Notes: generated by a model from the sequence alone, not told the origin. Positions 13,268-62,579 are shown, counted from the stretch's first letter. The stretch: 64,000 nucleotides of DNA from an uncultured Actinomycetota bacterium (GCA_963707755.1 CAVPRC010000008.1:191903-255902), one strand, 5' to 3'. Translations and numbers: made by a program.

Positions 13268-14248
13268 ATGAACGACGAACAGCCGGACATGGGTCTTTCG
13301 GACGAGGAGCTCGCCGCCCAGGGCGCGACCGCGCTCCCCGACAAGGAGGTCGTCTCCATCCTCGACCTCAACGCCGACATCGACCTGGCCATCGACGCGG
13401 CCGCCCCGATCGACCTCGCGGTCGCCGCGAACGCCAACGTGGCAGCGCCCATCGACGCCGCGGTCGGCGCCAACGTGCTGTCGATCGACTCCACCGCCCA
13501 GGCGCTGAGCGACCAGGGCGTGATCATCAACCAGGGCCTCGACGCGGACGCCTCGGCGCACGCCGTACAGGACAGCGCGCTCGACCAGAGCAACGACGTC
13601 GTCGACGCCGGCAACGGCGCGGCTCCTGCGGACGCTGCCGGGGCCACCGACGCCGGCGTCGCCCCCGAGGCTGCCACGGCCGCCCCGTCGGTCGGCAGCA
13701 CCGCGCTCGGCGACACAGGTGCGGCCACCGACGGCCTGACCGGCACGCTCGGCGACACCACGGGGACCGTGGGTGACGCTGCTGGCGGCGCGGTCGGCGA
13801 CACGGCCGGCACGGTCGGCGGCGCGGTCGGCGACACGGCCGGCACGGTCGGCGACACCGTCGGCGGGGCCACGGACGGTGTCGGAGGCACCGTGGGCGAT
13901 GCTGCCGGCGGTGTCGGCGGCGCGGTGGGCGGCGCTGTGGGCGGAGCGACCGGCGACCTCGGCGGCACGGTCGGCGGGGCCACGGGCGCGGCCGGCGGCC
14001 TGCTCGACGGCAACCTGCTCAACGTCGACGTCAACGTGGACGCCGATGCCGACATCGCGGCACCGATCAACGGCGCGGTCGCCGCGAACGCCAACGTGGC
14101 GGCCCCGATCGACGCGGCCGTCGGCGCCAACGTCGGCTCGGTCGGCAGCGACGCCATCGCCGTCTCGCAGCAGGACGCGATCATCAACCAGGACATCACC
14201 GGCTCGGCGGACGCGACGTCGGACCAGACGTCGGACATCCAGCAGTAG
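13268..14248 (+). CDS. Ala/Gly/Asp/Thr-rich repeat protein with duplicated ~75-aa end modules (unknown family)
   Basis: 326-aa ORF, ATG preceded by GGAGACCAGGGGA. Modules LNADIDLAIDAAAPIDLAVAANANVAAPIDAAVGANV... (N-terminal) and VDADADIAAPINGAVAANANVAAPIDAAVGANV... (C-terminal) flank GDTAGTVGG-type repeats. No signal peptide seen. Confidence 0.7.
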   Translation: MNDEQPDMGLSDEELAAQGATALPDKEVVSILDLNADIDLAIDAAAPIDLAVAANANVAAPIDAAVGANVLSIDSTAQALSDQGVIINQGLDADASAHAVQDSALDQSNDVVDAGNGAAPADAAGATDAGVAPEAATAAPSVGSTALGDTGAATDGLTGTLGDTTGTVGDAAGGAVGDTAGTVGGAVGDTAGTVGDTVGGATDGVGGTVGDAAGGVGGAVGGAVGGATGDLGGTVGGATGAAGGLLDGNLLNVDVNVDADADIAAPINGAVAANANVAAPIDAAVGANVGSVGSDAIAVSQQDAIINQDITGSADATSDQTSDIQQ

Positions 14249-35611: not shown

Positions 35612-35768
35612 CATGCGCGAGATCGCAGCACTGGCGGGCACGGACGACCCAGCACGGCGATGCGCCCCCCGTATGAGGTGGGACGCGTCTTGGGGTGAAG
35701 CCACTTTCTGGTGGCCGGGCAGACTTCGGTCCCGAACCCGACAGGTCATCGTTCGCAGGCGTCGCCGA
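35612..35768 (+). promoter_or_regulatory. ydaO/yuaA-type (c-di-AMP) riboswitch candidate
   Basis: Conserved blocks in order: ATCGC, GGGCACGGACGACCCA, TGGGGTGAAGCC, CCCGAACCCGACAGGTCATCGTTCGCAGGCG. It ends just before the GAAGGG RBS of the NlpC/P60 gene. Confidence 0.65.
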
Positions 35769-35779
35769 AGGGTTCCTGC

Positions 35780-36232
35780 ATGTCCTCGACGATCCGTCGT
35801 TTGTTCACTCCTGTCCTCGTCCTGGTCGGCACGCTCGTCGCGTCGCTGCTCCTGGTCGCACCGTCCGCCGACGCGAAGGCCGCTCCAGCTCGCGGCATCG
35901 TCAGCATCGCGGCGTCCAAGGCGGGCGCGCCGTACCGCTACGGCGCCACCGGCCCGAGCGCCTTCGACTGCTCCGGCTTCACTCGTTGGGTGTACGCGAA
36001 GGTGGGCCGGCACCTGCCGCGCACCTCCTCGGCCCAGGCCGGCGCGGCGCGCCACGTGAGCGCCTCCGACCGGCGGCCGGGCGACCTGGTCTTCTTCAAC
36101 GACGGTGGGGGCGTCTACCACGTGGCGATCTACGCCGGCGGCGACAGCGTGTGGCACGCGCCGCGGCCCGGCGAGACCGTGCACCGCGAGCATCTCTGGA
36201 CGAACGCGGTGTCCTACGGCCGGGTGGGCTGA
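35780..36232 (+). CDS. secreted NlpC/P60-family peptidoglycan endopeptidase
   Basis: Signal peptide, then GAPYRYGATGPSAFDCSGFTRWVY (catalytic Cys) and GDLVFF...GVYHVAIYAG (His). Confidence 0.85.
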   Translation: MSSTIRRLFTPVLVLVGTLVASLLLVAPSADAKAAPARGIVSIAASKAGAPYRYGATGPSAFDCSGFTRWVYAKVGRHLPRTSSAQAGAARHVSASDRRPGDLVFFNDGGGVYHVAIYAGGDSVWHAPRPGETVHREHLWTNAVSYGRVG

Positions 36233-36302: not shown

Positions 36303-37022
36303 TCATGACCCTTGGCGGAGGATCTCCCAGTCGAGGGACGCCTGGGTGCCGAGCTGGGGGCGCAGGTCCGGGCGGTCGCGGTAGGCCAGCAGGACGAACG
36401 CGAGCGTGGCCGCGTCGTCGCTGAGGTAGCGCGTCTGCACGGCGAGCGTCCCTTCGGGCGCCCGCACCTCACCGCGCCAGCCCGGCGGTGCGGTGCTGGA
36501 CCGCACCGGCCTCGCCCCGTCGCGCAGCACCACGGCGAGCGGCTCTCCGGGCACCACCCCGGCGATGTCGTCCCAGCCGACCCGCCAGGTGGCGCCGTCC
36601 TTGACGTTCGTGACGCCGTCGGCGGCGAGATAGACCCCGCCGGCCGGCATCCGCCCACGCACCACGAAGGCGAGGTACGTCGCGAGCACGGCGCCGACCG
36701 CGAGCAGGACGACCGCGACCACCAGGTCGTCACGACCGACGGCCACCACCCCCGCCGCGAGCGCACAGCCGGCGAGCACGACCAGGAAGCCAGCGGTGAC
36801 CGCCGGCACCCAGCCGGCCCGGGGCAGGACGGTCGCGGGCACGCCGGCGGGCGACCGGCCGACGACGGCGCCGGTGCTGCCACGGCGTGACGTCTCCAGG
36901 ACCGTGGCTGCCAGGGAGACCACACCCAACCCCGTCAGCAGCACGCCGAACAGCACGCCGTAGGTGCTGCCGTCGCGGACCGCGGCTACCAGGATCCCGG
37001 CGCCCACGAGCACCACGAACAC
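36303..37022 (-). CDS. multi-TM membrane protein with PH-like soluble C-terminal domain (candidate immunity protein)
   Basis: Four hydrophobic helices, then YLAADGVTNVKDGATWRVGWDDIAGVVPGEPLAVVLRDG. Lies downstream of the toxin-like gene on the same strand. Confidence 0.55.
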   Translation of the reverse strand: MFVVLVGAGILVAAVRDGSTYGVLFGVLLTGLGVVSLAATVLETSRRGSTGAVVGRSPAGVPATVLPRAGWVPAVTAGFLVVLAGCALAAGVVAVGRDDLVVAVVLLAVGAVLATYLAFVVRGRMPAGGVYLAADGVTNVKDGATWRVGWDDIAGVVPGEPLAVVLRDGARPVRSSTAPPGWRGEVRAPEGTLAVQTRYLSDDAATLAFVLLAYRDRPDLRPQLGTQASLDWEILRQGS

Positions 37023-37136
37023 CTGCCCCGCCGCGAGCAGCGCGAGCCGGCCGCCGCTGCGCCGTACCCGTGTCGTGCTCCGTCACTGGGTCACTCCATC
37101 ACTTCGTGGCTTCGTCGCTTCGTCACTGGTCACGGT

Positions 37137-38327
37137 TCAGTCGAACAGCCCGCCGATGGCGCCGCCCACCGCTCCGGCCGCGTCACCGATCGCACCGCCG
37201 GTGTCCTCGACCGCGTCCCACCCGGCGTCGACGGCCTCGCCGACATCCGGGCCGTTCTCGAAGAGCGAGTCGATCGCGCCGGAGGTGAAGATACCCACCC
37301 CCGCGCCGACGATCGCCCCGGTCGCCGTACCCACGCCCGGAATCGGCACGAAGCTGCCGATCACCGCGCCGGTCGCTGCGCCGGCGCCGACCGAGGCGAG
37401 GAAGCCGCCGGTGCCGGAGGCGACGGCCTGCACCGGGTCCTTGCCGGTGGCGATGTCGTAGCCGATGCCGGCCGCGGCCAGGACCCCACCCGCCTTGAGC
37501 GGCAGCGTCTTGCTGCCGGACTTGAGCGCGTCGGCCTCCTTGGCGAGGTCGTCGGCTGAACCGGCGAGCTTCTTGGCGTCGTCGAGGTCCTGGTACCACC
37601 GCTGTCTGCCGACCGCCGACGGGTCGGACCTCAGCGCCCGGTCGAGGTCGCGGATCGCCTGGCTCTTGAAGGTCTGCGAGGTCTGCCGCAGGGCGCTGGA
37701 GTTGAACTCCATCCGGGCGCCGGCGAGGCCGCCCACCACGTCGGCCGGGTTGAGCAGCCATTGGGCGCCGGACAGGCCGCGGTACTTGTCGGCCAGCCCC
37801 TGTCCGGCCGCCTTCAGGTCGCTGCGGACCGCCTCGGCGTCGGCGACGACGGTGTTCCAGGCACGGATCTTGTCCTGGTGCGCCTCGTAGGCTGCCACCG
37901 CGGCGTCGTGCGCATCGATGGCCTGCACCGGGGTGTCCGCCGTGACCGTCATGGGTCCCGGACGCGCGGGGCCGGCACCTGGGTTCTCGATGACGTAGCC
38001 CTGCACGGTCAGACCTGCGGCGGCCGCGGCCTCGCGGATGTCGGCCATCCGGTGCTGGGCGCTGCGCAGCGAGCCCGCGTAGGTGTCCAACGACAAGCCC
38101 ACGTCCCTGGCCGAGTCGGACAGGTCGTCGCTCTTACGCGACGCGCCCCGCATCGAGGACGCGAACGCGCCCCCGGCCGGACCGTCCCAGTCGGACTCGG
38201 CGTCGCCACGTGCCGAGCTCAGTGCGTCGGACGCGCGCACCACCGCGGGTGCCAGCGTGCCCGAGAGCCAGTGCCCGGCGGCCTCGATGGAGGCGGGGGC
38301 GCCCTTGACCTCGGTGTCCAGGCTCAC
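37137..38327 (-). CDS. LXG/T7SS-signal-like N-terminal domain protein with C-terminal glycine-zipper membrane domain (putative secreted toxin)
   Basis: N-terminus IEAAGHWL...DWDGPAGGAFASSM...SLDTYAGSLRSAQHRMADIREAA is helical and WXG/LXG-like. C-terminus GVLAAAGIGYDIATG...GGFLASVGAGAATGAVIGSFVPIPGVGTATGAIVGAGVGIFTSGAI. Start could be anywhere from 38327 to 38399. Confidence 0.6.
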   Translation of the reverse strand: MSLDTEVKGAPASIEAAGHWLSGTLAPAVVRASDALSSARGDAESDWDGPAGGAFASSMRGASRKSDDLSDSARDVGLSLDTYAGSLRSAQHRMADIREAAAAAGLTVQGYVIENPGAGPARPGPMTVTADTPVQAIDAHDAAVAAYEAHQDKIRAWNTVVADAEAVRSDLKAAGQGLADKYRGLSGAQWLLNPADVVGGLAGARMEFNSSALRQTSQTFKSQAIRDLDRALRSDPSAVGRQRWYQDLDDAKKLAGSADDLAKEADALKSGSKTLPLKAGGVLAAAGIGYDIATGKDPVQAVASGTGGFLASVGAGAATGAVIGSFVPIPGVGTATGAIVGAGVGIFTSGAIDSLFENGPDVGEAVDAGWDAVEDTGGAIGDAAGAVGGAIGGLFD

Positions 38328-38331
38328 CGCG

Positions 38332-38616
38332 TCACCGCACCCACGGGCCACGCAGGCCGTCGGCGGAACGTTGGTCGGTACCGACGTACGACGCCGCACT
38401 CGCCCCCACCTGGGAGCCCGCGGCCGAGAGACCCTCGGAGAGGCCGCCGGCGCTTTCGCAGACCCGGCTGATCGTCGAGCTGATCAGCGAGGACAGGTCA
38501 CCGCCGTCCACGCCGGAGGGTGCCGAGCCGCCGCAGTCCTCCAGCCCGCCGGCCGCCTTCACCAGCACGCCCTGGATGCGCTCGAGGGTGGCGAGGTCGA
38601 CGTCGGTGCCGCTCAC
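38332..38616 (-). CDS. small helical protein, EspC/type VII secretion target-like
   Basis: 94 aa from GTG 38616: SGTDVDLATLERIQGVLVKAAGGLEDCGG...ISRVCESAGGLSEGLSAAGSQV. The GTGA overlaps the upstream stop. Confidence 0.5.
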   Translation of the reverse strand: MSGTDVDLATLERIQGVLVKAAGGLEDCGGSAPSGVDGGDLSSLISSTISRVCESAGGLSEGLSAAGSQVGASAASYVGTDQRSADGLRGPWVR

Positions 38617-38900
38617 GACGCGCCCCCGTCTGCCGGCCGCGGCCGCATGTCGAGGAAGACCAGGTCGTAGGGCTCGTCGTCGTGGGCGCGCTGGAGGTCC
38701 TCGATGGTCAGCAGCGCCCACGGAGCGTCCGGCCGGTAGAACTCGTGCAGGCGGTCGATGGCGGAGTAGACGAACAGCGCGGTGCGGCCGTCGTTGGTCT
38801 CCACCAGCTCCAGACGCCGGGCGTCGTCGCCCGGCCGTGTGGTCGTCGGCGCGTAGACCACGGGTGGGAACTCCCGTCGCCCGTCCCCCGTGTCGGCCAT
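38613..38900 (-). CDS. SAV_915/SseB-like family protein
   Basis: MADTGDGRREFPPVVYAP...LELVETNDGRTALFVYSAIDRLHEF...PWALLTIEDLQ...PYDLVFLD fits the SseB-like N-terminal domain pattern. Confidence 0.55.
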   Translation of the reverse strand: MADTGDGRREFPPVVYAPTTTRPGDDARRLELVETNDGRTALFVYSAIDRLHEFYRPDAPWALLTIEDLQRAHDDEPYDLVFLDMRPRPADGGAS

Positions 38901-39019
38901 CGTGTCCCCCGGTCCCCTCGTCGTCGCGGTGCGGCCGAGCCTAACAACGACGCGACCGGCGGCGGTCGGGTTACCGTGGCGACGAGGGTGCAACGGCGCG
39001 CCCTCGGGAGGGAGCCGAC

Positions 39020-40697
39020 GTGCTGTCCGACATCGAGATCGCCGATCGGGCCGAGCTGCACAAGATCGTCGACGTCGCCCGTGACGAGCTGGGCATCCCG
39101 GAGGAGCACCTGGTGCCCTACGGGCACCACAAGGCCAAGGTCGACCTGCGCTACCTCACGTCGCTCGACCGTCCGTTGGGCCGGCTCATCCTGATGACGG
39201 CGCTCTCGCCCACCCCGGCCGGCGAGGGCAAGACCACGACGACGGTCGGCCTGACCGACGCGCTGCACGGGCTCGGGCACCGGTCGATGGCCTGCCTGCG
39301 TGAACCGTCGATGGGCCCGGTGTTCGGGATGAAGGGCGGCGCGGCCGGCGGCGGCTACTCACAGGTCGTGCCGATGACCGACATCAACCTGCACTTCACC
39401 GGCGACTTCGCGGCCATCGCCGCCGCGCACAACCTGCTGTCGGCCCTCATCGACAACCACGTGCACCACGGCAACGACGCTCGACATCGATGTCCGGTCG
39501 CTCACATGGAAGCGGGTCATCGACCTCAACGACCGCGCGCTGCGCGGCCTGGTGGTCGGTCTGGGTGGGGTCGGCAACGGCTTCCCGCGCGAGGACGGCT
39601 TCGACATCGTGGTCGCCTCCGAGCTGATGGCGATCTTCTGCCTGACCGAGTCGTGGGCCGACCTCAAGCGCCGCATCGGCGACATCGTCATCGGCTACAC
39701 CCGCGGCAAGGCGCCGGTGACCGCGCGCGACCTCGGTGCACACGGCGCGATGACCGTGCTGCTGCGCGACGCGCTGGCGCCCAACCTGGTGCAGACGCTG
39801 GAGCACGCACCGGCGTTCGTGCACGGCGGGCCGTTCGCGAACATCGCACACGGCTGCTCCTCGGTGATGGCCACGCACGCAGCCCTGCGGCTCGCCGACT
39901 ACGTGGTGACCGAGGCGGGGTTCGGCGCGGACCTCGGCGCGGAGAAGTTCGTCGACATCAAGTGCCGCAAGTCCGGGCTGCGTCCCGACGTCGCGGTCGT
40001 GGTGGCGACGGTGCGGGCGCTGAAGTACCACGGCGGCGTAGACCTCGCGGACCTCGGCACCGAGGACCTCGACGCGCTCGAGGCCGGGATGGCGAACCTG
40101 CGCCGGCACCTGCACAACATCCGAGAGGTCTACGGCGTGCCGTGCGTCGTGGCTGTGAACCGCTTCCCCACCGACACCGACGCCGAGATCGACCGGGTCG
40201 TCCGGCTCGTCGCGGACGAGGGCGTGCGGGCGTTCCCAGCGACCCACTTCGCCGACGGCGGGGTCGGGGCCGAGTCGCTGGCGAAGGGTGTCCTCGACGT
40301 GCTCGACCAGCCGTCGCCGTACTCCTTCTCCTTCACCTACGACGACGACCTCTCCCTGACCGCGAAGGTCGAGACGGTGGCGGCACGGTTGTACGGCGCC
40401 CGCGAGGTCACGTGGGACGGCAAGGCGCGACGGAGGCTCCAGCGGATCGAGGCGGACGGGTACGGGACGCTGCCGGTGTGCATCGCCAAGACGCAGTACT
40501 CGTTCTCGACCAACCCCACGATGCGGGGCGCGCCGTCCGGCCACGAGCTGCACGTGCGTGAGGTGCGGCTGGCCGCGGGCGCCGGCTTCGTGGTGATGGT
40601 GTGCGGCGACGTGATGACGATGCCCGGGCTGCCGAAGCGACCCGCCTGCGACCACATCGACCTCACCGACGACGGCGTGATCCTCGGGCTCTCCTAG
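39020..40697 (+). pseudogene. fhs: formate--tetrahydrofolate ligase, frame broken near 39478
   Basis: LSDIEIA...[16 protein letters not shown]...[12 protein letters not shown]-like block ends at HHGND. It continues in the 39552 frame: LDIDVRS...[15 protein letters not shown]...[12 protein letters not shown]. Confidence 0.85.
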
Positions 40698-50609: not shown

Positions 50610-52013
50610 TCAGGCGAGGGCGACCAGGTCCGCGTAGTCCGGCGCCCCACAGGTCCTCGACGCCGTCCGGGCAGCAGGATGATCCGCTCCGGCTGGAGCG
50701 CCTCGACGGCGCCCTCGTCGTGGGTGACGAGGACGACCGCGCCCTTGTAGGTGCGCAGCGCGCCGAGGATCTCCTCGCGGCTGGCCGGGTCGAGGTTGTT
50801 GGTCGGCTCGTCGAGCAGCAGCACGTTGGCGCGAGGAGACGACCAGGGTGGCGAGCGCGAGCCGGGTCTTCTCGCCGCCGGAGAGCACCCCGGCCGGCTT
50901 GTCGACGTCGTCGCCGGAGAACAGGAACGAGCCGAGCGTCTTGCGGACCTCGACCAGGTCGAGGTCGGGCGCGGCGGAGCGCATGTTCTCCAGGACCGTG
51001 CGCTCCGGGTCGAGCGTCTCGTGCTCCTGCGCGTAGTAGCCGAGCTTGAGGCCGTGGCCCGGGATGACCTCGCCGGTGTCCGGCTTCTCGACGCCCGCCG
51101 AGCAGCCGCAGCAGGGTGGTCTTGCCGGCGCCGTTGAGGCCGAGGATGACGACCCGGGAGCCCTTGTCGATGGCCAGGTCGACGTCGGTGAAGATCTCCA
51201 GCGAGCCGTACGACTTCGACAGGCCCTCGGCCATCAGCGGGGTCTTGCCGCAGGGCGCGGGCTCGGGGAAGCGCAGCTTGGCGACCTTGTCGGAGGCGCG
51301 CACCGCCTCCAGGCCGGCGAGCAGCCGCTCGGCGCGGCGTGGCCATGTTCTGCGCGGCGACGGTCTTGGTGGCCTTGGCGCGCATCTTGTCGGCCTGCGA
51401 GTTGAGGGCGGCGGCCTTCTTCTCGGCGTTCTGCGCGCTCGCGCTTGCGGCGCTTCTCGTCGGCCTCGCGCTGCTGCTGGTAGAGCTTCCAGCCCATGTT
51501 GTAGACGTCGATCTGGGAGCGGTTGGCGTCCAGGTAGAAGACCTTGTTGACGACCGTCTCGACCAGGTCGACGTCGTGGGAGATCACGATGAAGCCGCCG
51601 CGGTAGGTCTTCAGGTAGTCGCGCAGCCAGACGATCGAGTCGGCGTCGAGGTGGTTCGTCGGCTCGTCGAGCAGCAGGGTGTCGGCGTCGGAGAAGAGGA
51701 TGCGGGCCAGCTCGACACGGCGGCGCTGACCGCCGGAGAGGGTGTGCAGCGGCTGGCCGAGCACCCGGTCGGGCAGGCCGAGCGCGGCGGCGATGGTGGC
51801 GGCCTCGGCCTCGGCGGCGTAGCCGCCCTTGGTGAGGAACTCCGTCTCCAGGCGCTCGTACTGCTTCATCGCCTTCTCGCGGGTGGCGCGGTGTCGGGTT
51901 CGGTGTCGAACACCGGCACGACGAGATGTAGACTTCGCGCAGCTGCGCCCCAGCGGGGCTTCGCTGAACAGTATTGCCTGCCGGATCTGGGCGAGCACCG
52001 CGCGTCGTATCTT
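50610..52013 (-). pseudogene. ABC-F family ATPase, multiply frame-broken and lacking its 5' (NBD1 Walker A) part
   Basis: LSGGQRRRVELARILF, LLLDEPTNHLD, the linker QQQREADEKRRKRER, GLNGAGKTTLLRLL, LSGGEKTRLALA and ...DGVEDLWGADYADLVALA* are read across frames. No first Walker A lies upstream. An in-frame TAA is at 52014-52016. Confidence 0.75.
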
Positions 52014-52048
52014 TTAGCTGACGGCCGTGTTGCTGACGACGGCTCCAT

Positions 52049-53071
52049 CCAGGTGTCCGACAGCGTGAAGCCGGTAGGGAAGGGGTCGCTCGGGTCGACG
52101 CCGACCTTGCTGAAGTCGGTGATCCAGGCCTGACCCGCAATGCTTGGCACGACGGCGGCGACGTCGCCGACGGTCGTCAGGCTCTCGATGACGCCGTCGA
52201 AGTGAGTATCCAGGATCGAATTGTGGATGAAGTGTTCACCGGGGCTAATCTGGCCACGGGCGTGTACGATCGCGAGCCGCGCCGACGTTCCGGTGCCGCA
52301 GGCGGTTCGGTCAATGCGGCCCGGCGAGACGATGACCGCGTTTCGACCGGTCAAGACGTCGTTGATTCGCTGCACCGGGGTCGTGAACTCAGTTTGGGTG
52401 ATTCCGGGAAATCGGGGTGGACCGGGTGAACGGCGGACAAGCTGTTCAGCGGCCGCAGCTTGATCGCTGTCCGACAACGCAGAGGTCACGCGCTTCGGAC
52501 GGCTTAATCTCGAATCCGACACTGGCGGCGTCGACCAGCACGTAGGCCATACCTCCCCATGCGACGTCGACGGTCAGCGCCCCGATGCCGGGCACGTCGA
52601 TGGGGGCGTCGAGGTGGTAGACGAACGCCGGCTGGTTGCGAATCGGACACTGGTGACTTTGCCGTCGCGGCAGGTGCACTTCAGGCGATGAGCCCGGCCG
52701 GCGACTCGAGCGTCAGCGGGTGACCGGCTCGGTCATCGGCACCATGCCAGTCTCAAGCAGTACGGTGGCCACACAAATGGTGTTGCTGCCTGACATGACC
52801 GGGTACTCGGTGGACTCCATGATGACGTAGCCCATTGCCGCCGCGGGGTTGCTGGATGGCAGTACGACGTTGGTGGAGCGGACGACGTTGCCGCGGGGCT
52901 CGTGGAGCAGTCGCTGGCGGAGGTCGTCGCGGTGATCTTGCAGGTAGTTGCGCTTGTCGAGCATGGTCGTCGCCGGGGACATCGCCGATACCGCCCACCA
53001 CGACGTTTCCGATCTCGCCGCCTCGGCGTGGCACCGACGACGTCGACCAGGTTATTGAATGCATGCGCCAC
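52049..53071 (-). pseudogene. proline racemase / 4-hydroxyproline epimerase family gene, several frame breaks
   Basis: GEIGNVVVGGIGDVPG | TMLDKRNYLQDHRDDLRQRLLHEPRGN...MSGSNTICVATVLLETG | VDVAWGGMAYVLVDA | SPGRIDRTACGTGTSARLA...DPFPTGFTLSDTW. GTG 53071 follows AAGGA. Confidence 0.7.
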
Positions 53072-53809
53072 CTGTCCTTTGCGCTCTAGCTGGCGTCTTC
53101 GATGTGACTGCTGCGGCGCCACTGTGGGCCGGCGCTGCAGGCGCTGACCCGATAGTCGAACGCTTTGACCGTAACGATAGCCGTGGCGAGGGCCTCTTGG
53201 TGTCCGTGCGTACGGTCGCCGCGACGTCGCCGGGTACGGCCGTTGGGGCGGGCGGCATGCCCCTTGCGCCGGCAGCCGGAACCGCAGGTTTTCAGCCGCG
53301 CCCCTACGGGTGTGAGAGCGGCCCGATTGACGACCCTTGCCTGTGAGTATGCGTCGACCAGCCGGATGTCGTGGCGAATTCGTACCGGCCGTGCTGTCAT
53401 CGGCGGTTCTGGGAGCCGTGCTTTTCTTGGCCATGATCACCGAGCACGACCGTGATCTACACAAGATGAGCGATCATTCGATGCGCCGTTTCGCCTCGGC
53501 TGCTCCACAACTGGTCGTTGTTGAAGGCCGCGACCGGTGCAGTTTCCTCCTTCTTCAATTACCCGCTGAAACTTGAAGTGGTCCTGTCGAATACGTACGA
53601 CTTGTGGTTCGCGCCGTGGCCGTCCAGATCGAAATCACCGGCCTGGGTGCGACGCGGGCCGATTCGTTCAAGATTGCAGGTCGACAAAATGACTCGCGTG
53701 ACCCACCGCCCGATGTCGTAACGGCGCTTGTCGTTGTTTGATCTGCGAATTGGCTGGAATCGGTAATGTATTGCCTTTCTACATGCTGCCGTTGCGACAG
53801 GAGGCGAGG

Positions 53810-54916
53810 ATGGAGATCGTCGGTGCCGACGTCTTTGACTACCGGTTGAACTACGCCCACGGGGAGTACGTGATGTCGGGCGGGCGGGCAGCCCTGTTTC
53901 AGGTGGGCACTCTGGTGAGACTGCGCACGGATGACGGGGTGGACGGCTGGGGTGAGATCACCCCTCTGGGCAGCACCTACTTACCCACGTCGCCGGGCGT
54001 AGTTCGAGCGGGGCTTGCCGAGATACTCCCCGGGTTGGTCGGGTTGGATCCGACGAACATTTCAGCGGTGAACCGGGTCATGGACGGCACCCTGCTGGGA
54101 AATGGTTACGCCAAGAGCGCGGTCGACATCGCCTGCTGGGACCTGCTCGGCAAGGTCGCCGGCCTGCCAATCTCGGCATTGCTAGGGGGCGTACTGCAGG
54201 AGGACTTCCCGATCTATGAGGCGGTGCCGCTCGGCAGCCCACAGTGCATGGCCGACTTCATCACCACCCGCCGTGCGGCCGGCATCACCCGCTTTCAGCT
54301 GAAGGTCGGCAACCGGCCCGATGATGACATTGCCCGCACCCAGGCCTGCGCCGAAGCCGGTGAAGGCAAGACAGTGATCATCGCTGACTCCAACGGGGGC
54401 TGGAACATCCTCGATGCGCAGTTGGCGTTGTGCCGCATGGAAGACCTGCCGATATACATCGAACAGCCTTGCCGCACAACACAAGACAGCATCATCGCGC
54501 ACCGCGACTGCCGGCTGCCGCTGGTACTCGACGAGTCGGTCACCAACGCGACTGAGCTGTTTGAGGCCAAGACCGTAGCCGGTGCAATATCGGTCAATAT
54601 CAAGATCAGCCGGGTGGGCGGCCTGACAAAAGCGGTACGGATGCGGGATCTGATGCAGGAACTCAACATGATGGTGTCGGTGGAGGACATGTGGGGTGGC
54701 GACGTCATCACGGCGGCCGTGAGTCACATCGCCGCCAGCACTCGCCCCGAGAACCTACTGAACACCTCGTTCTTCAACGATTGGACCGACGGCCACATCG
54801 CTGGTTACATGCCGCGCTCGAACAATGGGCGGGGATCGGCCCCCACCGGCCCGGGTCTGGGTATCACGGTCGATGCGAAGGCTCTTGGTGAGCCCATCTT
54901 CACCACCGCCGGCTGA
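53810..54916 (+). CDS. enolase-superfamily enzyme (mandelate racemase/muconate lactonizing family)
   Basis: Intact 368-aa ORF. AKSAVDIACWDLLGK, FQLKVG, ADSNGGW, IEQP, LDES are the metal/acid-base motifs. RBS GGAGGCGAGG. Confidence 0.8.
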   Translation: MEIVGADVFDYRLNYAHGEYVMSGGRAALFQVGTLVRLRTDDGVDGWGEITPLGSTYLPTSPGVVRAGLAEILPGLVGLDPTNISAVNRVMDGTLLGNGYAKSAVDIACWDLLGKVAGLPISALLGGVLQEDFPIYEAVPLGSPQCMADFITTRRAAGITRFQLKVGNRPDDDIARTQACAEAGEGKTVIIADSNGGWNILDAQLALCRMEDLPIYIEQPCRTTQDSIIAHRDCRLPLVLDESVTNATELFEAKTVAGAISVNIKISRVGGLTKAVRMRDLMQELNMMVSVEDMWGGDVITAAVSHIAASTRPENLLNTSFFNDWTDGHIAGYMPRSNNGRGSAPTGPGLGITVDAKALGEPIFTTAG

Positions 54917-55048
54917 CACCGAGCCACATGTTTGATCTCAAACGTATGGGACAGTCCACTGCCGCAGGATCGACTGCGGCCGACGGCACGCCGAGTTCCG
55001 AACGGAAACCGGCGAATACTCGATCATGGACACCGGCAGCCTCAACGG

Positions 55049-55630
55049 AACCCCTTCTTCGCCCTGGGCACCTTCTCTCCGCGGGTGATGGAATCGCTGG
55101 GAGTGATCAGCAAACTCGGCGCCGGAGCCGCCTACAACGCCTTCCTGCTCATCGGAGCACTGTTGGGACTGCTGGTGATCGACCGAATCTCACGGCGCAC
55201 GTTCCTGATCGGGACCTTCTTCCTCGGAGCCGCCCTGCTGATGGCACTTGTCGTGCTCGCCGACGTGAGCCCGGTTCTGGCCGTAAGTCTGTTCGCATCC
55301 TTCGCGCTTGTGCTTGCCGCAGCAGTGAATCTCGAGTTCGTTTATCCACCCGAGCTCTTTCCCACCGACTTACGGGCGTCCGGTGTCGGAATCGCGACAG
55401 CCGCCAGTCGAATCGGATCGGCGGCCAGTACATTCCTGCTGCCGATCGTCGTGGCCACCTTCAGCATCAACGTGGCGCTCATCGCGTGCGTCGTCGTCCT
55501 GGCCATCGGTGGCCTCATCTGCTGGGCCTGGGCCCCCGAAACCGGTACCGAGTCGCTGGGCGAGGTCGCCGAACAGGTGCAGCACGAAACCGATGACCAC
55601 ACACACCACACTGTCCAGCAGTGCCGGTAA
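55049..55630 (+). pseudogene. MFS (sugar-porter-like) transporter, C-terminal half only
   Basis: FFALGTFSP...VIDRISRRTF...YPPELFPTDLRASGVGIATAASRIGSA...PETGTESL corresponds to about TM7-12. No N-terminal half is present upstream. Confidence 0.6.
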
Positions 55631-55779
55631 CGACACCCACACGAAAGCGGCACCCCAAAACGGGTGCCCCTCTTTCGTCGTGCAACACCGCCCTGCGCGA
55701 TGTCCACCGACGCCCGGTCCCGTAAACGCCCCAAGCAGAGGCGAGTTGGCAATGAAGGACCGCTGGGAGCGTTGATGGG

Positions 55780-56205
55780 TCGCGACGCACTCATTAATCA
55801 TCAGGCGATTGCGTACTGCGAGCGTGCGATCGCAGAACCGCGCGGCGAGGTTGTGTACCGGTCGTATTCGCTGTGGACGATGGCGCTTGTTATGTGACAA
55901 CAGAACGCTCCGATCCACGCGGCCGAAGTACTCGAGCAGTGCCTGCAACTCACACGTCACGTCGAGGACCCGCTCGGAACCGCCTGGTGCATAGAAACAT
56001 TGGCCTGGACCACTACCGGAGACAACGACGGCGAACGCTCTGCTGTCCTGCTCGGAGCTGCGGAAAGACTGCGACAAACGGTGGGAAATCCACGGGTCGC
56101 CGGTTACGCCCTCCGGCAGTGAAATTGGTCAAGTTCGACCTGTTCGGCGCCAAGGTCGGCGATCGCCTCGACGCCGTTCACCGGGCTGGGGGTCGTTGCA
56201 GGTAG
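55780..56205 (+). pseudogene. remnant of a TPR-containing (LuxR/AfsR-type) regulator C-terminus
   Basis: ...YRSYSLWTMALVM*QQNAPIHAAEVLEQCLQLTRHVEDPLGTAWCIETLAW...AVLLGAAERLRQTVGNP has an in-frame TGA and a later frame change. No N-terminal domains are present. Confidence 0.3.
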
Positions 56206-56258
56206 AGATCGTCGAAGGCCGCTCGTGACGCCGAAGGACAGCGGGAATTGAGGGCGAC

Positions 56259-56924
56259 TCAGCCGCCGGCTTCAAGGACCGCCGTCAGCACCTGCAGCGC
56301 GCGGTCCCGGTGTGCGTCGAGTTCCGCGACGACCTCGTCAGTGGCACGGCGGCGGACGGCGTCGAGGATCTTCTCGTGCGCATCTACGGTGGTGGCGCGT
56401 TCCTCGGGCGAGTTGTAATACATCGCGCGATAGGCCTCGGTGGATTCCCAGAGCAGCTGGATCAGGCGCATCGTGTGCGGGTGATCCGGCGACTCAAATA
56501 TGCCGAAATGAAACCGGCGGTTCGCCGCCAACTCTGCGGCGACGTCACCGCGCCCGGCCGCCTCGGCGCAGTCGCGCGCGGCCAGCGCGATCAGCTCCAC
56601 GGCGTCGTCGTCCAGAGCCGGCAGTGCCAGCCGCACCGCCCGCTCCTCCAGCAGCTGCCGCAGCGCGTAGATCTCCACGAGGTCCTCGGCGCGAAGCTCC
56701 GTGATGAAATAGCCGCGCCGGGGCCGGTAAACGACCTGACCTTCCTGCTCGAGCGCGCGCAACGCTTCCCGCACCGGGGCCACGCTGACACCGAGGTTTT
56801 CGGCGATGTCCTCCTGCAGGATTCGCTGTCCCGGGCGGAACTCACCCGCCACGATGGCCCGGCGCAGCCCGTCGAGGGCGTGCTGCGCTGTCGTTCCGGG
56901 GCCGCCTTGGCGCATCGTCATCAT
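56259..56924 (-). CDS. GntR-family (FadR/FCD subfamily) transcriptional regulator
   Basis: LRRAIVAGEFRPGQRILQEDIAENLGVSVAPVREALRALEQEG (wHTH) plus a helical FCD-type C-terminal domain. Confidence 0.85.
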   Translation of the reverse strand: MMTMRQGGPGTTAQHALDGLRRAIVAGEFRPGQRILQEDIAENLGVSVAPVREALRALEQEGQVVYRPRRGYFITELRAEDLVEIYALRQLLEERAVRLALPALDDDAVELIALAARDCAEAAGRGDVAAELAANRRFHFGIFESPDHPHTMRLIQLLWESTEAYRAMYYNSPEERATTVDAHEKILDAVRRRATDEVVAELDAHRDRALQVLTAVLEAGG

Positions 56925-56947
56925 CGCGACTCTAGCGGTGGCCGCGG

Positions 56948-58118
56948 CTACCGGAAGGCGTCGATCCCGGTCAGCGCGCTCCCGATTACCAGCGCGTGCA
57001 CGTCGGCGGTTCCCTCGTAGGTGACCACCGACTCGAGGTTGGCCATATGCCGGATGACGGGGTACTCCAGCGTGATGCCGTTCGCGCCGAGCACCTGCCG
57101 GGCGGTGCGCGCGACCTCGAGTGCGGCGTTGACATTTCCCAGCTTGCCCATGCTGACCTGCTCGGGCCGCAACCGCCCGGCGTCCTTTAGCCGGCCGAGG
57201 TGCAACGCGAGCAGGGTGGCCCGATTGACCTCCAGCGCCATCGTGGCCATCTTCTGCTGCTGGATCTGGAACGACGCGATCGGCTTGCCGAATTGGATCC
57301 GGGTGGTGCTGTAGTCGACGGCGGCCTCCAGACAGGCCCGCGCCGCTCCGGCCGCGCCCCACACGATGCCGTAGCGCGCCTCGTTCAGACACGACAGCGG
57401 ACCGCGCAGTGAGGTCGCTTCGGGCAACATCGCCGACGCGGGCAGGCGCACCTCGTCGAGGATCAGCTCCGAGGTGACCGACGCGCGCAGCGACAGCTTC
57501 TTGTGGATATCGACTGTGCTGAAGCCCCTCGTGCCCTTGGGCACCAGGAATCCCCGGACCCCCTCTTCGGTCCTGGCCCAGACAACGGCGACATCGGCGA
57601 GCGAGCCGTTGGTGATCCACATCTTCTGTCCGCGCAGGATCCAGTCCTGGCCGTCACGACGGGCGTAGGTGCGCATCGATGCGGGATCCGAGCCCGAGTC
57701 CGGCTCGGTCAGCCCGAAGCAGCCGATCGCCTCGCCGGCGGCCATCGCGGGCAACCATTGGCGCTTCTGCTCCTCCGATCCCCACCGGTGGATCGCGAAC
57801 ATCGCCAGCGAGCCCTGCACCGACACCATGCTGCGGATCCCGCTGTCGCCCGCCTCAAGCTCCAGACAGGCCAGCCCGTAGGCCGTCGCGCTGGTCCCGG
57901 CGCAGTCGTAGCCGTCCAGGTGCATGCCCAGCACACCGAGCTTGCCCAGCTCACCCATCAGATCGCGGGGCACTCGCCCCTCGTCGAACCAATCCCCGAC
58001 CTCGGGCAGTACCCGCTCGCGTACGAAGGCCCGCACCGTGTCACGTATGTCTCGTCTCCTCGTCGGAGAGAACCGAGTCGATGGACAGATAGTCCTGCAG
58101 GGCGGTGGCAACTGGCAT
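56948..58118 (-). pseudogene. gcdH: glutaryl-CoA dehydrogenase-like acyl-CoA dehydrogenase, one frame break near 58055
   Basis: ATG 58118 preceded by AAGGAGA. MPVATALQDYLSIDSVLSDEE | RDIRDTVRAFVRERV...GCFGLTEPDSGSDPASM...WITNGSLADVAVVWA...EYPVIRHMANLESVVTYEGT. Confidence 0.8.
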
Positions 58119-58162
58119 TTGTGGGTCTCCTTGACGCTTGGGATAATGACACAGTACATGCT

Positions 58163-58188
58163 ATCTTCGATTTTCGAAACTCGAAGAT
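58163..58188. promoter_or_regulatory. palindromic operator candidate in the divergent gcdH / CoA-transferase spacer
   Basis: ATCTTCGA-TTTTCGAAAC-TCGAAGAT: 8-bp perfect arms around a second palindrome TTTCGAAA, in an AT-rich 86-bp spacer. Confidence 0.4.
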
Positions 58189-58204
58189 AATAGAGAGGTG
58201 GCGT

Positions 58205-59329
58205 ATGACCGGAGCTCTTGACGGCCTGCGGGTCCTGGACTTCTCGCGGATCCTGGCCGGGCCCTTCGCGACGATGCAGCTCGCCGACTTCGGCGCCACG
58301 GTGACCAAGGTCGAACGCCCCGGCACCGGCGACGACACCCGTGGCTGGGGCCCGCCCTACGACAAGCATGGGCAAGCGACCTACTTCCAGGCGGTCAACC
58401 GCAATAAGGACAGCATCGTCCTTGACCTGACCGACGAGCGTGATCAAGCGCAGGCCAGGGCGCTCGCCGCCGACGCCGACGTCGTGGTCGAGAATTTCCG
58501 CCCGGGCTTGATGGCGGAGTTCGGCCTCGACTACGACCGGCTCCGGCTGGCCAACCCCGGCCTCATCTACTGCTCGATCACCGGTTTCGGCCGCGGCGCC
58601 GGAGCCTCCCTACCCGGCTACGACCTACTGCTCCAGGCGGTCGGTGGCCTGATGAGCATCACCGGCAGCCCCGACGGCGAGCCCCAGAAGGTCGGGGTCG
58701 CCGTGGTCGACGTGCTCGCCGGGCTTTTCGCCACGACCGGCATCCTGACCGCACTGCACCACCGCGCGGCCACGGGCGAGGGTCAGTTGGTCGAAGTGGA
58801 CCTGCTGTCCTGCCTGCTCGCGGCCCTGGTCAACCAGGCCAGCGCCTACACCTCGGCCGGTGTGGTACCCACCCGGATGGGCAACCAGCACCCCAGCATC
58901 GCGCCCTACGAACTGCTGTCCTGCGCCGACGGCGATCTAGTCTTGGCCGTCGGCAACGATCGTCAGTTCGCCGCCCTGTGCGACGTGCTCGGCGTGCCGC
59001 ACATGGCGATCGATCCACTGTTCGCCACAAACAGCGCACGCGTCCAGCACCGGGGCCTGCTGCGTGCCGAACTCGAAAAGCGGCTCGCGACAAGGACGGC
59101 CGCCGACTGGGCAGCCGAGCTGACGCGGGTGCGTGTCCCCGCCGGCATCGTCAACGACATCGCCGGCGCCTTCGGTCTTGCGGCCGGACTCGGCCTGAAC
59201 CCCATCGTCGAGCTCTCCCGTGATGACGGCAGCAGTGTCTCTTTGTGCCGTAACCCCATCAACCTGTCGGCGACCCCGGCCAGCTACCGATCGGCACCCC
59301 CGCCGCTGCCCGGCACGAAGGTCAGCTGA
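58205..59329 (+). CDS. family III (CaiB/BaiF) CoA-transferase
   Basis: LDGLRVLDFSRILAGPFATMQLADFGATVTKVERPGTGDDTR and ENFRPG motifs. Intact 374-aa ORF. Confidence 0.85.
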   Translation: MTGALDGLRVLDFSRILAGPFATMQLADFGATVTKVERPGTGDDTRGWGPPYDKHGQATYFQAVNRNKDSIVLDLTDERDQAQARALAADADVVVENFRPGLMAEFGLDYDRLRLANPGLIYCSITGFGRGAGASLPGYDLLLQAVGGLMSITGSPDGEPQKVGVAVVDVLAGLFATTGILTALHHRAATGEGQLVEVDLLSCLLAALVNQASAYTSAGVVPTRMGNQHPSIAPYELLSCADGDLVLAVGNDRQFAALCDVLGVPHMAIDPLFATNSARVQHRGLLRAELEKRLATRTAADWAAELTRVRVPAGIVNDIAGAFGLAAGLGLNPIVELSRDDGSSVSLCRNPINLSATPASYRSAPPPLPGTKVS

Positions 59330-59369
59330 ATTCCACAGAGCGACAGGCGGATTGCGAGTTCGAACTTCG

Positions 59370-59416
59370 TGGCCAGGACCGGGATCGAACCGGCGGCCTC
59401 CCGCTTTCATGCGGAC
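59370..59416 (-). tRNA. tRNA-Phe(GAA)-like 3' fragment (anticodon arm to acceptor end); not a complete tRNA
   Basis: The reverse complement reads gtccgc-atgaaa-gcggg aggcc gccgg-ttcgatc-ccggt cctggcc a: a T arm with GTTCGATCC and a 7-nt acceptor 3' strand. The matching 5' acceptor strand ggccagg and the D arm are absent upstream. Confidence 0.45.
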
Positions 59417-59721
59417 TTAGTGAGCGACTGCCATCCATACGTGCTGTTTGAACCGGATCAACGGCCGCAAACGGGGCGAGCCCAACCAAGCTAGTCCCTT
59501 CTGTTGGGCCCATTTTGGCCCGTCCATTTAAGCCAGGGCCGTGATGTCCTCGGGAAGTAACGAGCCGCGGCCACCGAAAAACAGGACGCCACAGAGGAAG
59601 CCAGCCGCGCCGACATCAGGCAAGCCGGGGTGTGCCGGGCCCGAGAGAGTCGCGGGCCAGTGCCGTGCGGCATCGGGCTCGCAGTCGGACTCGTCAGTCT
59701 GGGGAGGCAGATCACGCGATG

Positions 59722-61086
59722 TCAAAAAGGAAGAAAATTTGTGCGTTGACCGCTGCGGATCATGTGTGTGGTGCACACGAGACACGCATCGTGAGAACGA
59801 ACGATGTGGCCAAGGTGGAGAGGATTGTCCGGATCTGGAACGGACAGCCCGATTAGGCTTTCCTCCCAGTGTCCGCGCCGGCCGTCGGAGTCGCGCGGCG
59901 AGGCGTTCCAGGTCGTGGGAGTGATGATTTGATAGTTGGAAATCTTCCCGTCCCGGATACAGATCCAGTGACTCACAGTTCCTCGTGCTGCATTGACCGC
60001 GCCAAAACCTCGGCCCTGGTCCGGCACATCAGTGGGCCACACCATGGCGGGTTCGCTGCCTTCTGCCCTTAGCTCGGCGATCGTCTGGCGCATGAGTTGC
60101 ATGACCAGGACAGGCCTGTGCAGGCGGGTCAGTTGGCGGAGCCAGGCATTAGGCCCCTCGGCCCGCATCCAAGACGCGATGAGGGGATCACCGGCGAGAA
60201 AGAGGTCGACCATCGGCCCGATTTGGACCACCTGATTCGCGTAGCGTGTCGCCTTGGCATGGCTGTATTGTCCTCGGTCCGGCCCGTGCTCAGCCTTGGT
60301 GACCGAGTCCCACGGGTGGGTGGGCCCGTAGTCGGCAAACCATGAATAGCGCGTATGTTCCCGCACCTGGTGGTGATCAAAGGATTCAACGCGTTCGCCG
60401 TTGAGATATCCACCCGGCATCAGGAAGCCGTTGTTGTCGGGTCGTGGATAACAGCCACAACTCAGCAGGTAGCGGCTGCCCAGGCCCAGGTGCTGTAGGC
60501 CGATGGAGCGCCCGAAGCCGGCGTAAAGCCCAGCGCCGGTGTCTGGATGCTCTTCTAGCCAGCCGAGAAACCCTTCGGCGGTGTGAAGTCCCATCCACTG
60601 GTCACTGGTACAGCCCAACACCTCTGCCTCATACCAGGATTGGTATTCGTCGATCGCGGCCTCACACTTGGCCAGTTTCTCGGCCGTCACCTCGCAGGTG
60701 ACTCCTCCCGGTGCCATATAGGTGGCATGGGGCCACTGCCCGGCGAATGCGGTGATGATGCCGAGCATGCCTTTCGAGCGCAAGACCGCCTGGCGCGCAA
60801 AGTAACCCTTGAGCGGAGGCTCAAAAGCCGTCACCATCTTCTCGTATAGAGGGTGAGAGCGATAGGCGGCATGGCAGAAGTCGGGGCAGAACATCACAAA
60901 GGTTTGCCGGGCATCATTCATCACGGCTTCGGCCATCAGACAGAGATTGCGCACGCGCACGCCATTGGGAGCGGGCTGGACACCCCAGGCGTCTTCGAGT
61001 GCTCTCACCCCGGCGTAGAGCTGAGCTGTACTACAGATGCCGCAAATGCGCGGGACAATGACCAACACATCAGACGGCGCGCGGCC
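59722..61086 (-). pseudogene. [NiFe]-hydrogenase large subunit, distal part (split by an IS)
   Basis: ...APSDVLVIVPRICGICSTAQ (N-terminal Ni-binding CxxC) ... HDACLVCTTHMI (C-terminal DxCxxCxxH). The reading frame abuts the IS end. Confidence 0.8.
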
Positions 61087-61119
61087 GGAATTTTTCAAGG
61101 TGGATGAGTCCAGTGGGTG

Positions 61120-62217: not shown

Positions 62218-62579
62218 ATGATGTCCAGGGCGGCCTCGGTGGTGTGCAACCGCTTGTTTGCGCGAGCGAGTTCGCGGGTGAGCCGCGCGATCTCGGCCTG
62301 TTCGGCGGTGAGCCTGCCAACCTTCTCGCCGGGCCGTTTGCCCGCCAGCACCCCGGCGTCGCGTTGCTTGCGCCATTCGCTGATCAACGACGAATACAGG
62401 CCCTCCCGCCGCAAATAGGCGCCGCCTTCACCGTGTTCGCACGCCTGCTCATAGGCATGCAGATGGGCAATCTTGTCCGACGCGGTGAACGCGCGACGGC
62501 GCCGCGGCCCGTCGGCTCTGGGGTGGGGTGGATCCATCGGTTCATTGTGGTTCACCGCGGTAATCGTGGAGCTGGTCAT
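62145..62579 (-). CDS. IS3-family transposase OrfA (HTH + leucine-zipper-like)
   Basis: 144 aa. RRAFTASDKIAHLHAYEQA...LTAEQAEIARLTRELARANKRL. Confidence 0.75.
   Translation of the reverse strand: MTSSTITAVNHNEPMDPPHPRADGPRRRRAFTASDKIAHLHAYEQACEHGEGGAYLRREGLYSSLISEWRKQRDAGVLAGKRPGEKVGRLTAEQAEIARLTRELARANKRLHTTEAALDIMGKAHALLESLSERADSDEQRKKR

Follow-up and report, generated by a model that had tools for sequence, protein, structure and literature searches.

The question raised by this locus is whether four tightly packed genes of an uncultured bacterium encode a secreted toxin together with the proteins that hold, export and resist it. The genes, here called g1 to g4, occupy positions 36303-38900 on the minus strand of a 64,000-nucleotide stretch of DNA from an uncultured Actinomycetota bacterium (GCA_963707755.1 CAVPRC010000008.1:191903-255902). 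This whole stretch is referred to as the window. Our data support the four genes as a conserved, co-inherited module. The best explanation, to which we give a probability of about 0.55, is that the cassette consists of a glycine-zipper toxin exported by an actinobacterial type VII secretion system (T7SSa), a targeting partner, a chaperone and an immunity protein, and that it is analogous to EsxX/ExiAB/ExiCD of Staphylococcus aureus.

Products of the four genes

The cassette comprises four minus-strand open reading frames (ORFs) in the order g1, g2, g3, g4. An earlier note on this DNA had described four same-strand genes joined by a GTGA overlap and by gaps of 4 and 114 nt, and when coordinates and junctions were rechecked all of this held. 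g1 (38613..38900) starts with ATG at 38900, ends with TGA at 38613-38615 and encodes 95 aa; its stop overlaps in GTGA with the start of g2 (38332..38616; start GTG 38614-38616, stop TGA 38332-38334; 94 aa). The GTG of g3 (37137..38327; start GTG 38327, stop 37137-37139; 396 aa) lies 4 nt past the g2 stop. g4 (36303..37022; start GTG 37022, stop 36303-36305; 239 aa) follows after a spacer of 114 nt (37023..37136, minus strand), which contains the remnant of an ancestral g4 start codon, GTG 37084-37086. A longer reading of g3, with 420 aa from 38399, was ruled out because every homologue starts at MS-x-DTE (MS(I/V/L)DTE), which identifies the 396-aa start.

The effector candidate is g3, in which sequence and structure predictions suggest a WXG100/PPE-like N-terminal domain, a helical linker and a glycine-zipper membrane module. 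The N-terminal domain (residues 1-185; 37773..38327, minus strand) consists of three long helices, the first turn holding W47-D-G49, and is predicted to be a T7SS targeting domain. In the AlphaFold2 model (pLDDT, predicted local distance difference test, >90) a helix at residues 11-46 is followed by the W47-D-G49 turn, a helix at 50-103, a Pro-rich linker and a helix at 134-185. W47 is invariant (83/83 sequences). The g3 profile matched S. aureus EsxA (E = 0.011, positions 7-94) with W47-D-G49 in register with the WEG of EsxA, and the highest-probability Foldseek matches of the N-terminal model were PPE15 and PPE41, with weak E-values. Pfam WXG100_2 was matched below threshold in 7 and WXG100 in 6 of 13 family members, and one relative (P0174) scored above the WXG100 threshold at 28.8; the window g3 scored 11.3 against the same model, below its cut-off of 27.3. 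No Pfam PE or PPE match was obtained for the cassette products, and hydropathy gave no hydrophobic N-terminal or Sec-type signal in g3. This N-terminus had previously been described as LXG/WXG-type. The EsxA match and the invariant W47 favor the WXG100-like part of that description; an LXG domain was rejected, with no Pfam match in g3 and 12 relatives and no LXG structure among the top 50 Foldseek matches.

The C-terminal module of g3 (residues 179-396; 37140..37793, minus strand) is the unit common to Rhs-fused, Hydro_N_hd-fused and orphan copies, and it is the candidate toxin domain. The Gly-x3-Gly-rich C-terminus pointed out in the earlier note was confirmed: the hydrophobic glycine-zipper core (residues 273-396; 37140..37511, minus strand) contains 24% Gly, 11 GxxxG motifs, twelve zipper motifs and two transmembrane-like segments in the hydrophobic windows at ~305-357. 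The C-terminal segment is the best-conserved part of the g3 family. AlphaFold2 confidence is low over the zipper core, as is expected for a membrane-inserting segment. DUF1269 and Gly-zipper Pfam matches in the family were below threshold and holin-type matches were weak, and the PDB profile search with g3 returned no relevant match to characterized glycine-zipper toxins. The module is rare, with 276 cluster representatives among 1.84 billion proteins, mostly of 355-450 aa.

The same module is carried by several scaffolds. Residues 179-396 recur at 52-60% identity behind Pfam Hydro_N_hd (P0117, P0120 and L046), together with g1 and g4 and without g2. In one locus (L044) the module caps the C-terminus of a protein of 1741 aa that contains Hydro_N_hd, DUF6531 and 19 RHS repeats. 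It stands directly behind the core motif DPLGL, and the next gene is a g4 homologue; neither g1 nor g2 is present. Further N-termini that bear the module had no Pfam match. Orphan modules, consisting of an N-terminally truncated g3 copy and g4 only, were found in two loci. One of them (L065) is a second copy located 16 kb from the full cassette on the same Amycolatopsis contig, and the other (L069) comprises the last 166 aa and g4 beside an apparent translated tRNA gene. In the Rhs proteins studied so far the C-terminal tip holds a toxin, and the reuse of a module on several scaffolds and the presence of orphan C-terminus and immunity fragments are features of polymorphic toxins. Scaffold reuse, orphan copies and the adjacent g4 suggest that the C-terminal module of g3 behaves like a toxin domain.

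The profile of g2 predicts an EsxB/CFP-10-like helical hairpin, which would be the heterodimer partner of the g3 N-terminal domain and the carrier of the export motif. As a single sequence g2 had no family match in Pfam or NCBIfam. A profile of 31 g2 sequences matched Mycobacterium tuberculosis EsxB/CFP-10 over its full length (E = 6e-4, positions 7-92), some members matched the Pfam WXG100 and EspC models weakly, and the Rhodococcus orthologue is labeled EspC in UniRef. The candidate T7SS YxxxD/E export signal, Y77-x3-D81 (Y77-VGT-D81; 38374..38388, minus strand), is placed by the profile alignment opposite the CFP-10 export motif, YSRAD, and both Y77 and D81 are conserved in alignments A3 and A6. 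g2 had been proposed to resemble EspC/type VII secretion targets; a hairpin of the WXG100 superfamily agrees with this proposal, but g2 is nearer to EsxB/CFP-10 than to EspC.

g1 had been called SAV_915/SseB-like, and it passes the NCBIfam model SAV_915 (NF042914) with 51.3 bits against a cut-off of 40. It falls narrowly below the cut-off of Pfam SseB (19.4; cut-off 21), and its orthologues are labeled SAV_915 or SseB family in NCBI and UniRef. A search with the single sequence reached close relatives only, and a profile search retrieved 972 SAV_915 proteins. The product is soluble and acidic, and its AlphaFold2 model (pLDDT 84) is a small alpha/beta domain. With Foldseek (E-values 0.02-0.08) this model matched best, together with Tic22, the uncharacterized TTHA0547 (probability 0.99); the match to Anabaena Tic22, a cyanobacterial preprotein chaperone, had a probability of 0.90, a TM score of 0.45 and a weak E-value of 0.08. 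The PDB sequence search gave chance-level matches only, e.g. a glycerophosphodiesterase (E = 0.014). Using HHpred, Iyer et al. had independently connected the SseB domain with peptide-binding chaperones of the Tic22 kind (PMC9503650). From its family and modeled fold, g1 is a candidate peptide-binding chaperone or cytoplasmic neutralizer of the hydrophobic g3 C-terminus.

Variation in g1 was also seen. In Cellulomonas (L070 6001-6555) two SAV_915 domains are fused in tandem in a g1 of 184 aa that heads an otherwise normal cassette, and longer SAV_915 proteins (180-194 aa) were found in Mycolicibacterium (L073, with a single domain detected) and Phycicoccus as well. By analogy with ExiA/ExiB, the Cellulomonas fusion hints that the chaperone candidate may act as a dimer. 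Prauserella and Amycolatopsis have a second, orphan SAV_915 gene just downstream of the cassette (L048 12829-13119, L052 12815-13093 and L066 12891-13211), and in these three loci the next gene downstream of it codes for an acyl-CoA/biotin carboxylase alpha subunit. Second cassettes at the extra SAV_915 copies of Prauserella, Amycolatopsis and Haloechinothrix were considered and rejected; the neighbors of ~600 aa are acyl-CoA/biotin carboxylase alpha subunits.

The product of g4 is a candidate immunity protein, predicted to have four transmembrane segments and a probably cytoplasmic, bacterial PH-like C-terminal domain. The earlier note had proposed a four-transmembrane protein with a PH-like domain. 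Hydropathy agrees with the first part, giving four hydrophobic segments followed by a C-terminal domain of ~110 aa. The PH assignment is less secure. It rests on weak matches in 5 of 37 homologues, to bPH_6 in 4/37 (best E = 0.008) and to bPH_10 in 1/37 (E = 5.8e-5), and on the UniRef label of the Rhodococcus homologue, 'PH domain-containing protein'; the window g4 itself had no bPH match, and its PDB sequence search returned chance-level matches only.

Distribution and linkage to type VII secretion genes

The cassette was found in ~70 loci across Actinomycetota. The genome scan used one genome per species and yielded 66 loci, and co-occurrence was called with hidden Markov models built from the loci. 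These loci span Nocardioides, Aeromicrobium, Marmoricola, Propionicimonas, Haloechinothrix, Saccharopolyspora, Prauserella, Amycolatopsis, Actinophytocola, Pseudonocardia, Dietzia, Millisia, a Mycobacterium, Serinibacter and Microbacterium, and further look-ups added Prescottella equi, Mycolicibacterium, Cellulomonas and Kibdelosporangium. The four genes keep their order and overlaps in Nocardioides panacis, and also in Rhodococcus triatomae, where they stand in an unrelated neighborhood.

The genes co-occur according to simple rules. A g4 homologue adjoins the g3 C-terminal module in 66/66 genome-scan loci whatever the N-terminus, upstream or downstream and in several cases in two copies; the gene that the earlier note put at the position of an immunity gene is a constant companion of the module in these loci. 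g1 is missing only from the Rhs fusion and from the two orphan copies truncated at the N-terminus, and goes with every other form. g2 is present in all loci with the WXG100-type N-terminus but one (L068), and in no other locus. Relative to the window, g1 had a median identity of 0.53, the halves of g3 0.45 and 0.46, and g2 0.38; g4, with 0.31, is the fastest evolving of the four genes. Some arrangements depart from that of the window. Dietzia alimentaria has two complete cassettes in tandem (L050 6500-12000). In a Nocardioides subfamily with a g3 of 414-422 aa (L019-L040, ~8570-9400), g4 is often upstream of g1, giving the order g4-g1-g2-g3, and several of these loci have one g4 copy on each side.

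Two relatives connect the module with secretion genes. The g1 profile search led to Micromonospora sp. NPDC007230, in which a SAV_915 gene lies inside a complete ESX locus. The order there is mycP, two WXG100 genes, eccC, genes for two helical proteins, a YbaB-like gene, a gene for a 109-aa protein ending in YQAAD, a gene for a 336-aa WXG100_2 protein, the SAV_915 gene, mazG, eccB and eccD. The C-terminus of the 336-aa protein matches the g3 module (E = 5.5e-30). In a Nocardioides-like metagenome-assembled genome (MAG; L042), whose g3 is 58% identical to that of the window, a search with Micromonospora EccB and EccD located eccB ~3 kb from the cassette; it matched Pfam T7SS_ESX1_EccB with 125.6 and 60.6 bits on two frameshifted pieces.

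Among the genes that separate eccC from the glycine-zipper gene in the Micromonospora ESX locus (L074 6418-8876) are three whose products may be further substrates or adaptors: a helical protein of 119 aa, a protein of 443 aa in which a WxG-containing helical N-terminus is followed by a long Pro/Ala/Gly-rich tail, and the YbaB-like protein. A known anti-phage defense system was rejected for the cassette; PADLOC gave no meaningful match, only a chance-level LeoB hit on the glycine-rich segment (E = 0.0066).

The window has a GC content of ~72%, and its closest named relatives are Nocardioides. The N. panacis proteins are 67-77% identical to the window products, and in this species the cassette is at the syntenic place in the order BrkB, formate-tetrahydrofolate ligase (FTHFS), cassette, NlpC/P60, MacB. 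The divergent intergenic region between g1 and the FTHFS gene (38901..39019) is presumed to contain the operon promoter. A promoter scan of this region found no sigma-70 consensus site, which is expected because the genome has 72% GC. The FTHFS gene (38966-40697, plus strand) is broken by a frameshift at ~39479; residues 13-184 of N. panacis FTHFS are found in frame 2 and residues 185-589 in frame 3, at 85-90% identity. This frameshift is either a sequencing or assembly indel or the mark of a housekeeping-enzyme pseudogene. On the other side, a gene for an NlpC/P60 cell-wall peptidase (35711-36232, plus strand) is convergent to g4 and syntenic in N. panacis. Effector secretion by the S. aureus T7SSb is reported to need a dedicated cell-wall hydrolase (PMC13059805). 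The adjacency of the peptidase gene to the cassette may be coincidental. Farther away, at 52000-64000, the GC content falls from ~0.72 to 0.60-0.65 and ORFs at 61120-62579 (minus strand) look transposase-like by eye; the change could mark an assembly junction or an island gained by horizontal transfer. At 13268-14248 (plus strand) the window encodes a 326-aa acidic protein that is built of short degenerate repeats (…APIDLAVAANANVAAPIDAAVGANV…) and belongs to no obvious family.

Proposed mechanism and rival explanations

In the toxin reading, g3 would be the effector, and its WXG100/PPE-like N-terminal domain would pair with the EsxB-like g2 into an Esx- or PE/PPE-like helical bundle. This bundle would show a composite WXG and YxxxD signal to an EccC-type ATPase. 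After export, the glycine-zipper module may enter the cytoplasmic membrane of the target and cause depolarization or permeabilization. In the producer cytoplasm, the SseB/Tic22-like g1 would hold the hydrophobic zipper, so that g3 would stay soluble and harmless until export. We infer this role for g1 because it remains beside the C-terminal module on other N-terminal domains, also in the ESX-embedded copy, and is absent from the Rhs form and the truncated orphans. In the Rhs form, of which there is a single example, the toxin would sit inside the Rhs shell without g1. g4, with its four transmembrane segments and cytoplasmic PH-like domain, would be a membrane-resident immunity protein that guards the membrane of the producer.

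A number of results weigh against this scheme. As the earlier note had stated for ESX core genes, none was detected in the window, where tblastn with Micromonospora queries found no eccB, eccC or eccD; in 65 of the 66 genome loci tblastn with Micromonospora ESX proteins likewise found no core gene up to 10 kb from the cassette. Large ORFs carrying multiple Walker A motifs were sought in 69 loci, and none was EccC-like; four proteins of ~880 aa with two P-loops ~400 residues apart were set aside as not having the EccC pattern. No g4 homologue lies within 6 kb of the ESX-embedded Micromonospora copy. Every family score of the window g2, g3 and g4 misses its curated cut-off, including WXG100_2 (25.3; cut-off 27) and Gly-zipper_Omp for g3, and Foldseek E-values were weak throughout. 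The 11 GxxxG motifs in residues 273-396 compare with 6.9 +/- 2.0 in composition-preserving shuffles, and the excess over composition is only modest because 182 of 5000 shuffles reached at least 11.

The genetic behavior of g3 is also less mobile than that expected of a rapidly swapping toxin. Across Nocardioides, FTHFS and NlpC/P60-MacB flank the locus in synteny, the gene is close to single-copy, and inheritance of the locus looks vertical and stable. Among the 120 g3 homologues listed, 118 match from the N-terminus on and have the same C-terminus, and the remaining two (P0117 and P0120) share only the C-terminal half, so that no other C-terminus was found on the g3 N-terminal domain. The synteny and the constant C-terminus therefore resemble a stable core gene more than a toxin that swaps rapidly. 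The earlier note had named a conserved single-copy core gene with an invariant C-terminus and no toxicity as one outcome that would speak against its proposal, and part of this was found, namely the Nocardioides synteny and the C-terminus that is constant on this N-terminal domain. It had also suggested a check for C-terminal domain swapping. The answer to this was divided: the same module is present on other N-terminal scaffolds, including Rhs, and as orphans, but the WXG100-type scaffold has no varied C-termini among the listed homologues.

These observations leave room for a role of g3 in the producer itself. It might be a T7SS-associated physiological membrane protein, either a channel or anchor in the producer's own envelope or an accessory of the secretion machine, with g4 as a membrane partner or regulator and g1 as a chaperone, comparable with the EsxE/EsxF pore and the N-terminal channel of CpnT. 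We regard this as unlikely on balance, although it deserves serious attention. A g3-like gene and g1 are inside a core Micromonospora ESX locus without g4, an arrangement compatible with a task other than antagonism, for instance that of a channel or envelope protein associated with ESX. The stable synteny of the nearly single-copy Nocardioides gene and the lack of C-terminal swapping on this N-terminal domain among the listed homologues point in the same direction, as does UniRef, which gives one g3 homologue the CpnT name 'outer membrane channel protein'. However, the same module is found at the C-terminal tip of an Rhs protein, which is the toxin position in studied Rhs proteins. The orphan fragments with truncated C-terminus and g4, and the duplications of g4, better suit conflict systems, and g4 is the fastest diverging gene. 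A sharper form of this idea, which we put forward tentatively and consider slightly more doubtful, is that g3 proteins, instead of being weapons, supply a functional part that has been missing from ESX-4-type secretion in actinomycetes other than mycobacteria. g3 would then be an exported, self-inserting glycine-zipper channel with an unrecognized SseB/Tic22-like chaperone, encoded within the secretion locus in Micromonospora and in a satellite operon elsewhere, and g4 would be its membrane gatekeeper.

The link with type VII secretion might itself be questioned. If the WXG100-like helices served only for oligomerization or for binding g2, the cassette could be a T7SS-independent module for membrane stress or lysis, in which a holin-like or DUF1269-type glycine-zipper protein is combined with a regulator. 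The weak DUF1269, Gly-zipper and holin-type Pfam matches would fit such a module, and so would the WXG100-family scores of the window proteins, all below threshold, and the lack of ESX genes in the window and near most loci. We nevertheless find it improbable. A WXG on g3 combined with a YxxxD on the coupled 94-aa g2 is a specific two-part T7SS signal, the module is embedded in the Micromonospora ESX locus, and eccB is near the cassette in the Nocardioides-like MAG. A dispersed location is, moreover, normal for T7SS substrates, orphan Esx pairs and PE/PPE genes among them.

Another point against a functional toxin-immunity pair in this particular genome is the disrupted 5' end of g4. Compared with N. 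panacis and a close MAG (L009), the window g4 has a 14-nt deletion just past the ancestral start codon (37023-37090). The deletion puts the ancestral GTG 37084-37086 out of frame, so that the ORF restarts at 37022. The locus could then be decaying or non-functional here, with g4 deprived of its ancestral start, while the family itself is real, and the frameshift in the neighboring FTHFS housekeeping gene might be read in the same way. We hold this to be very improbable. The four ORFs are otherwise intact, with a GC content at third codon positions of 0.89-0.93. The GTG at 37022 stands behind a G-rich stretch, and translation of g4 could restart there in frame; the first transmembrane segment is shortened, but all four hydrophobic segments are kept. 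Since the adjacent FTHFS gene is also frameshifted, sequence errors are possible, and that frameshift points to sequencing or assembly indels rather than to decay. An exported toxin with its partner, chaperone and immunity protein remains our preferred reading of the cassette.

Known systems and meaning of the cassette

The closest analogy to the toxin reading is EsxX of S. aureus. There the targeting domain has small Lap proteins as partners, a hydrophobic groove of the soluble ExiAB pair takes up the glycine zipper, and resistance to EsxX arriving from outside comes from polytopic ExiCD (PMC12744356). EsxX/LapX3/LapX4, a T7SSb system, and the cassette have in common a helical N-terminal targeting domain with one or more small helical proteins that bind it, or in the cassette are predicted to bind it, and an export motif on one of these proteins (PMC12744356). 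Both also have a C-terminal glycine zipper, which is membrane-depolarizing in EsxX, a small soluble alpha/beta protein as a possible shield and a polytopic membrane protein, which in the cassette is a candidate, for immunity. The likeness is one of part-for-part logic, and the roles in the cassette are predictions. The parts themselves differ. EsxX belongs to the T7SSb of Bacillota, and the cassette would belong to the T7SSa of Actinomycetota; the N-terminus of EsxX is LXG, whereas that of g3 is WXG100/PPE-like. EsxX has two Laps with FxxxD, and the cassette has one helical partner with YxxxD. The shield of EsxX is DUF5085, whereas the chaperone candidate here is SAV_915/SseB/Tic22-like. EsxX immunity involves two proteins with six transmembrane segments each (DUF5079/DUF5080), in contrast to the single immunity candidate with four transmembrane segments and a PH-like domain in the cassette. 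TspA/TsaI of S. aureus and TelE/TipE of Streptococcus gallolyticus similarly combine a C-terminal glycine zipper on a T7SS substrate with a downstream membrane immunity gene (PMC7456083, PMC10434224). By their description they are set apart from the cassette; TspA and TelE are Firmicute proteins with LXG or LXG-like N-termini and no known SseB-like accessory gene.

Among actinobacterial proteins, the mycobacterial EsxA/EsxB and PE/PPE pairs resemble g3/g2 in having WXG on one partner and YxxxD/E on the other, encoded by adjacent, translationally coupled genes. g3 differs from PPE proteins in lacking the PPE motif and in carrying a 210-aa membrane module, and in place of the EspG-type chaperone of PE/PPE proteins the cassette has the 95-aa SseB-like protein. 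CpnT of M. tuberculosis is ESX-dependent and membrane-active, has a WXG100_2-type N-terminus and is encoded beside the small Esx-like genes EsxE/EsxF. g3 shares with it the WXG100_2-type N-terminal region, by the Pfam WXG100_2 match, and the small Esx-like neighbor, and in the proposed reading it would also share ESX dependence and membrane activity. Unlike g3, CpnT has an NAD+ glycohydrolase toxin and a cytosolic immunity factor, and it has no glycine-zipper C-terminus, SAV_915 gene or four-transmembrane partner. Zhang et al. in 2012 reportedly provided the framework for Rhs/YD-repeat and other polymorphic toxin systems. The g3 module resembles such toxins in its reuse on an Rhs scaffold and a second N-terminal domain, in its adjacent candidate immunity gene and in its orphan fragments. 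In contrast to them, its C-terminus is constant across genera on the WXG100-type scaffold, so that it is not visibly polymorphic, and the module is rare.

Public records name the cassette proteins hypothetical, SseB/SAV_915 family, EspC-like or PH-domain. No description of the cassette was found in the literature on SAV_915, on Nocardioides with T7SS and on actinobacterial T7SS toxins. As far as found in this literature, the glycine-zipper T7SS module is known in staphylococci and streptococci, and none is described for actinobacteria. What is new here is that the N-terminal domain, the helical partner and the chaperone and immunity candidates come from families other than those of the Firmicute systems, and that the secretion system would be of the actinobacterial type.

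T7SS antibacterial toxins, including glycine-zipper depolarizers with membrane immunity, have so far been a Firmicute (T7SSb) story. If the toxin reading is true, the cassette would be, as far as the literature searched goes, the first T7SSa interbacterial toxin-immunity family, and g1 would represent the first role of an SseB-like chaperone in type VII secretion. The job proposed for the SAV_915/SseB family would be to hold a hydrophobic glycine zipper before export. Several carriers of the cassette, P. equi and Mycolicibacterium among them, are genetically tractable. ESX-type function outside pathogenic mycobacteria is little understood, and the cassette offers a candidate substrate and function for the ESX-4-like systems of soil actinomycetes.

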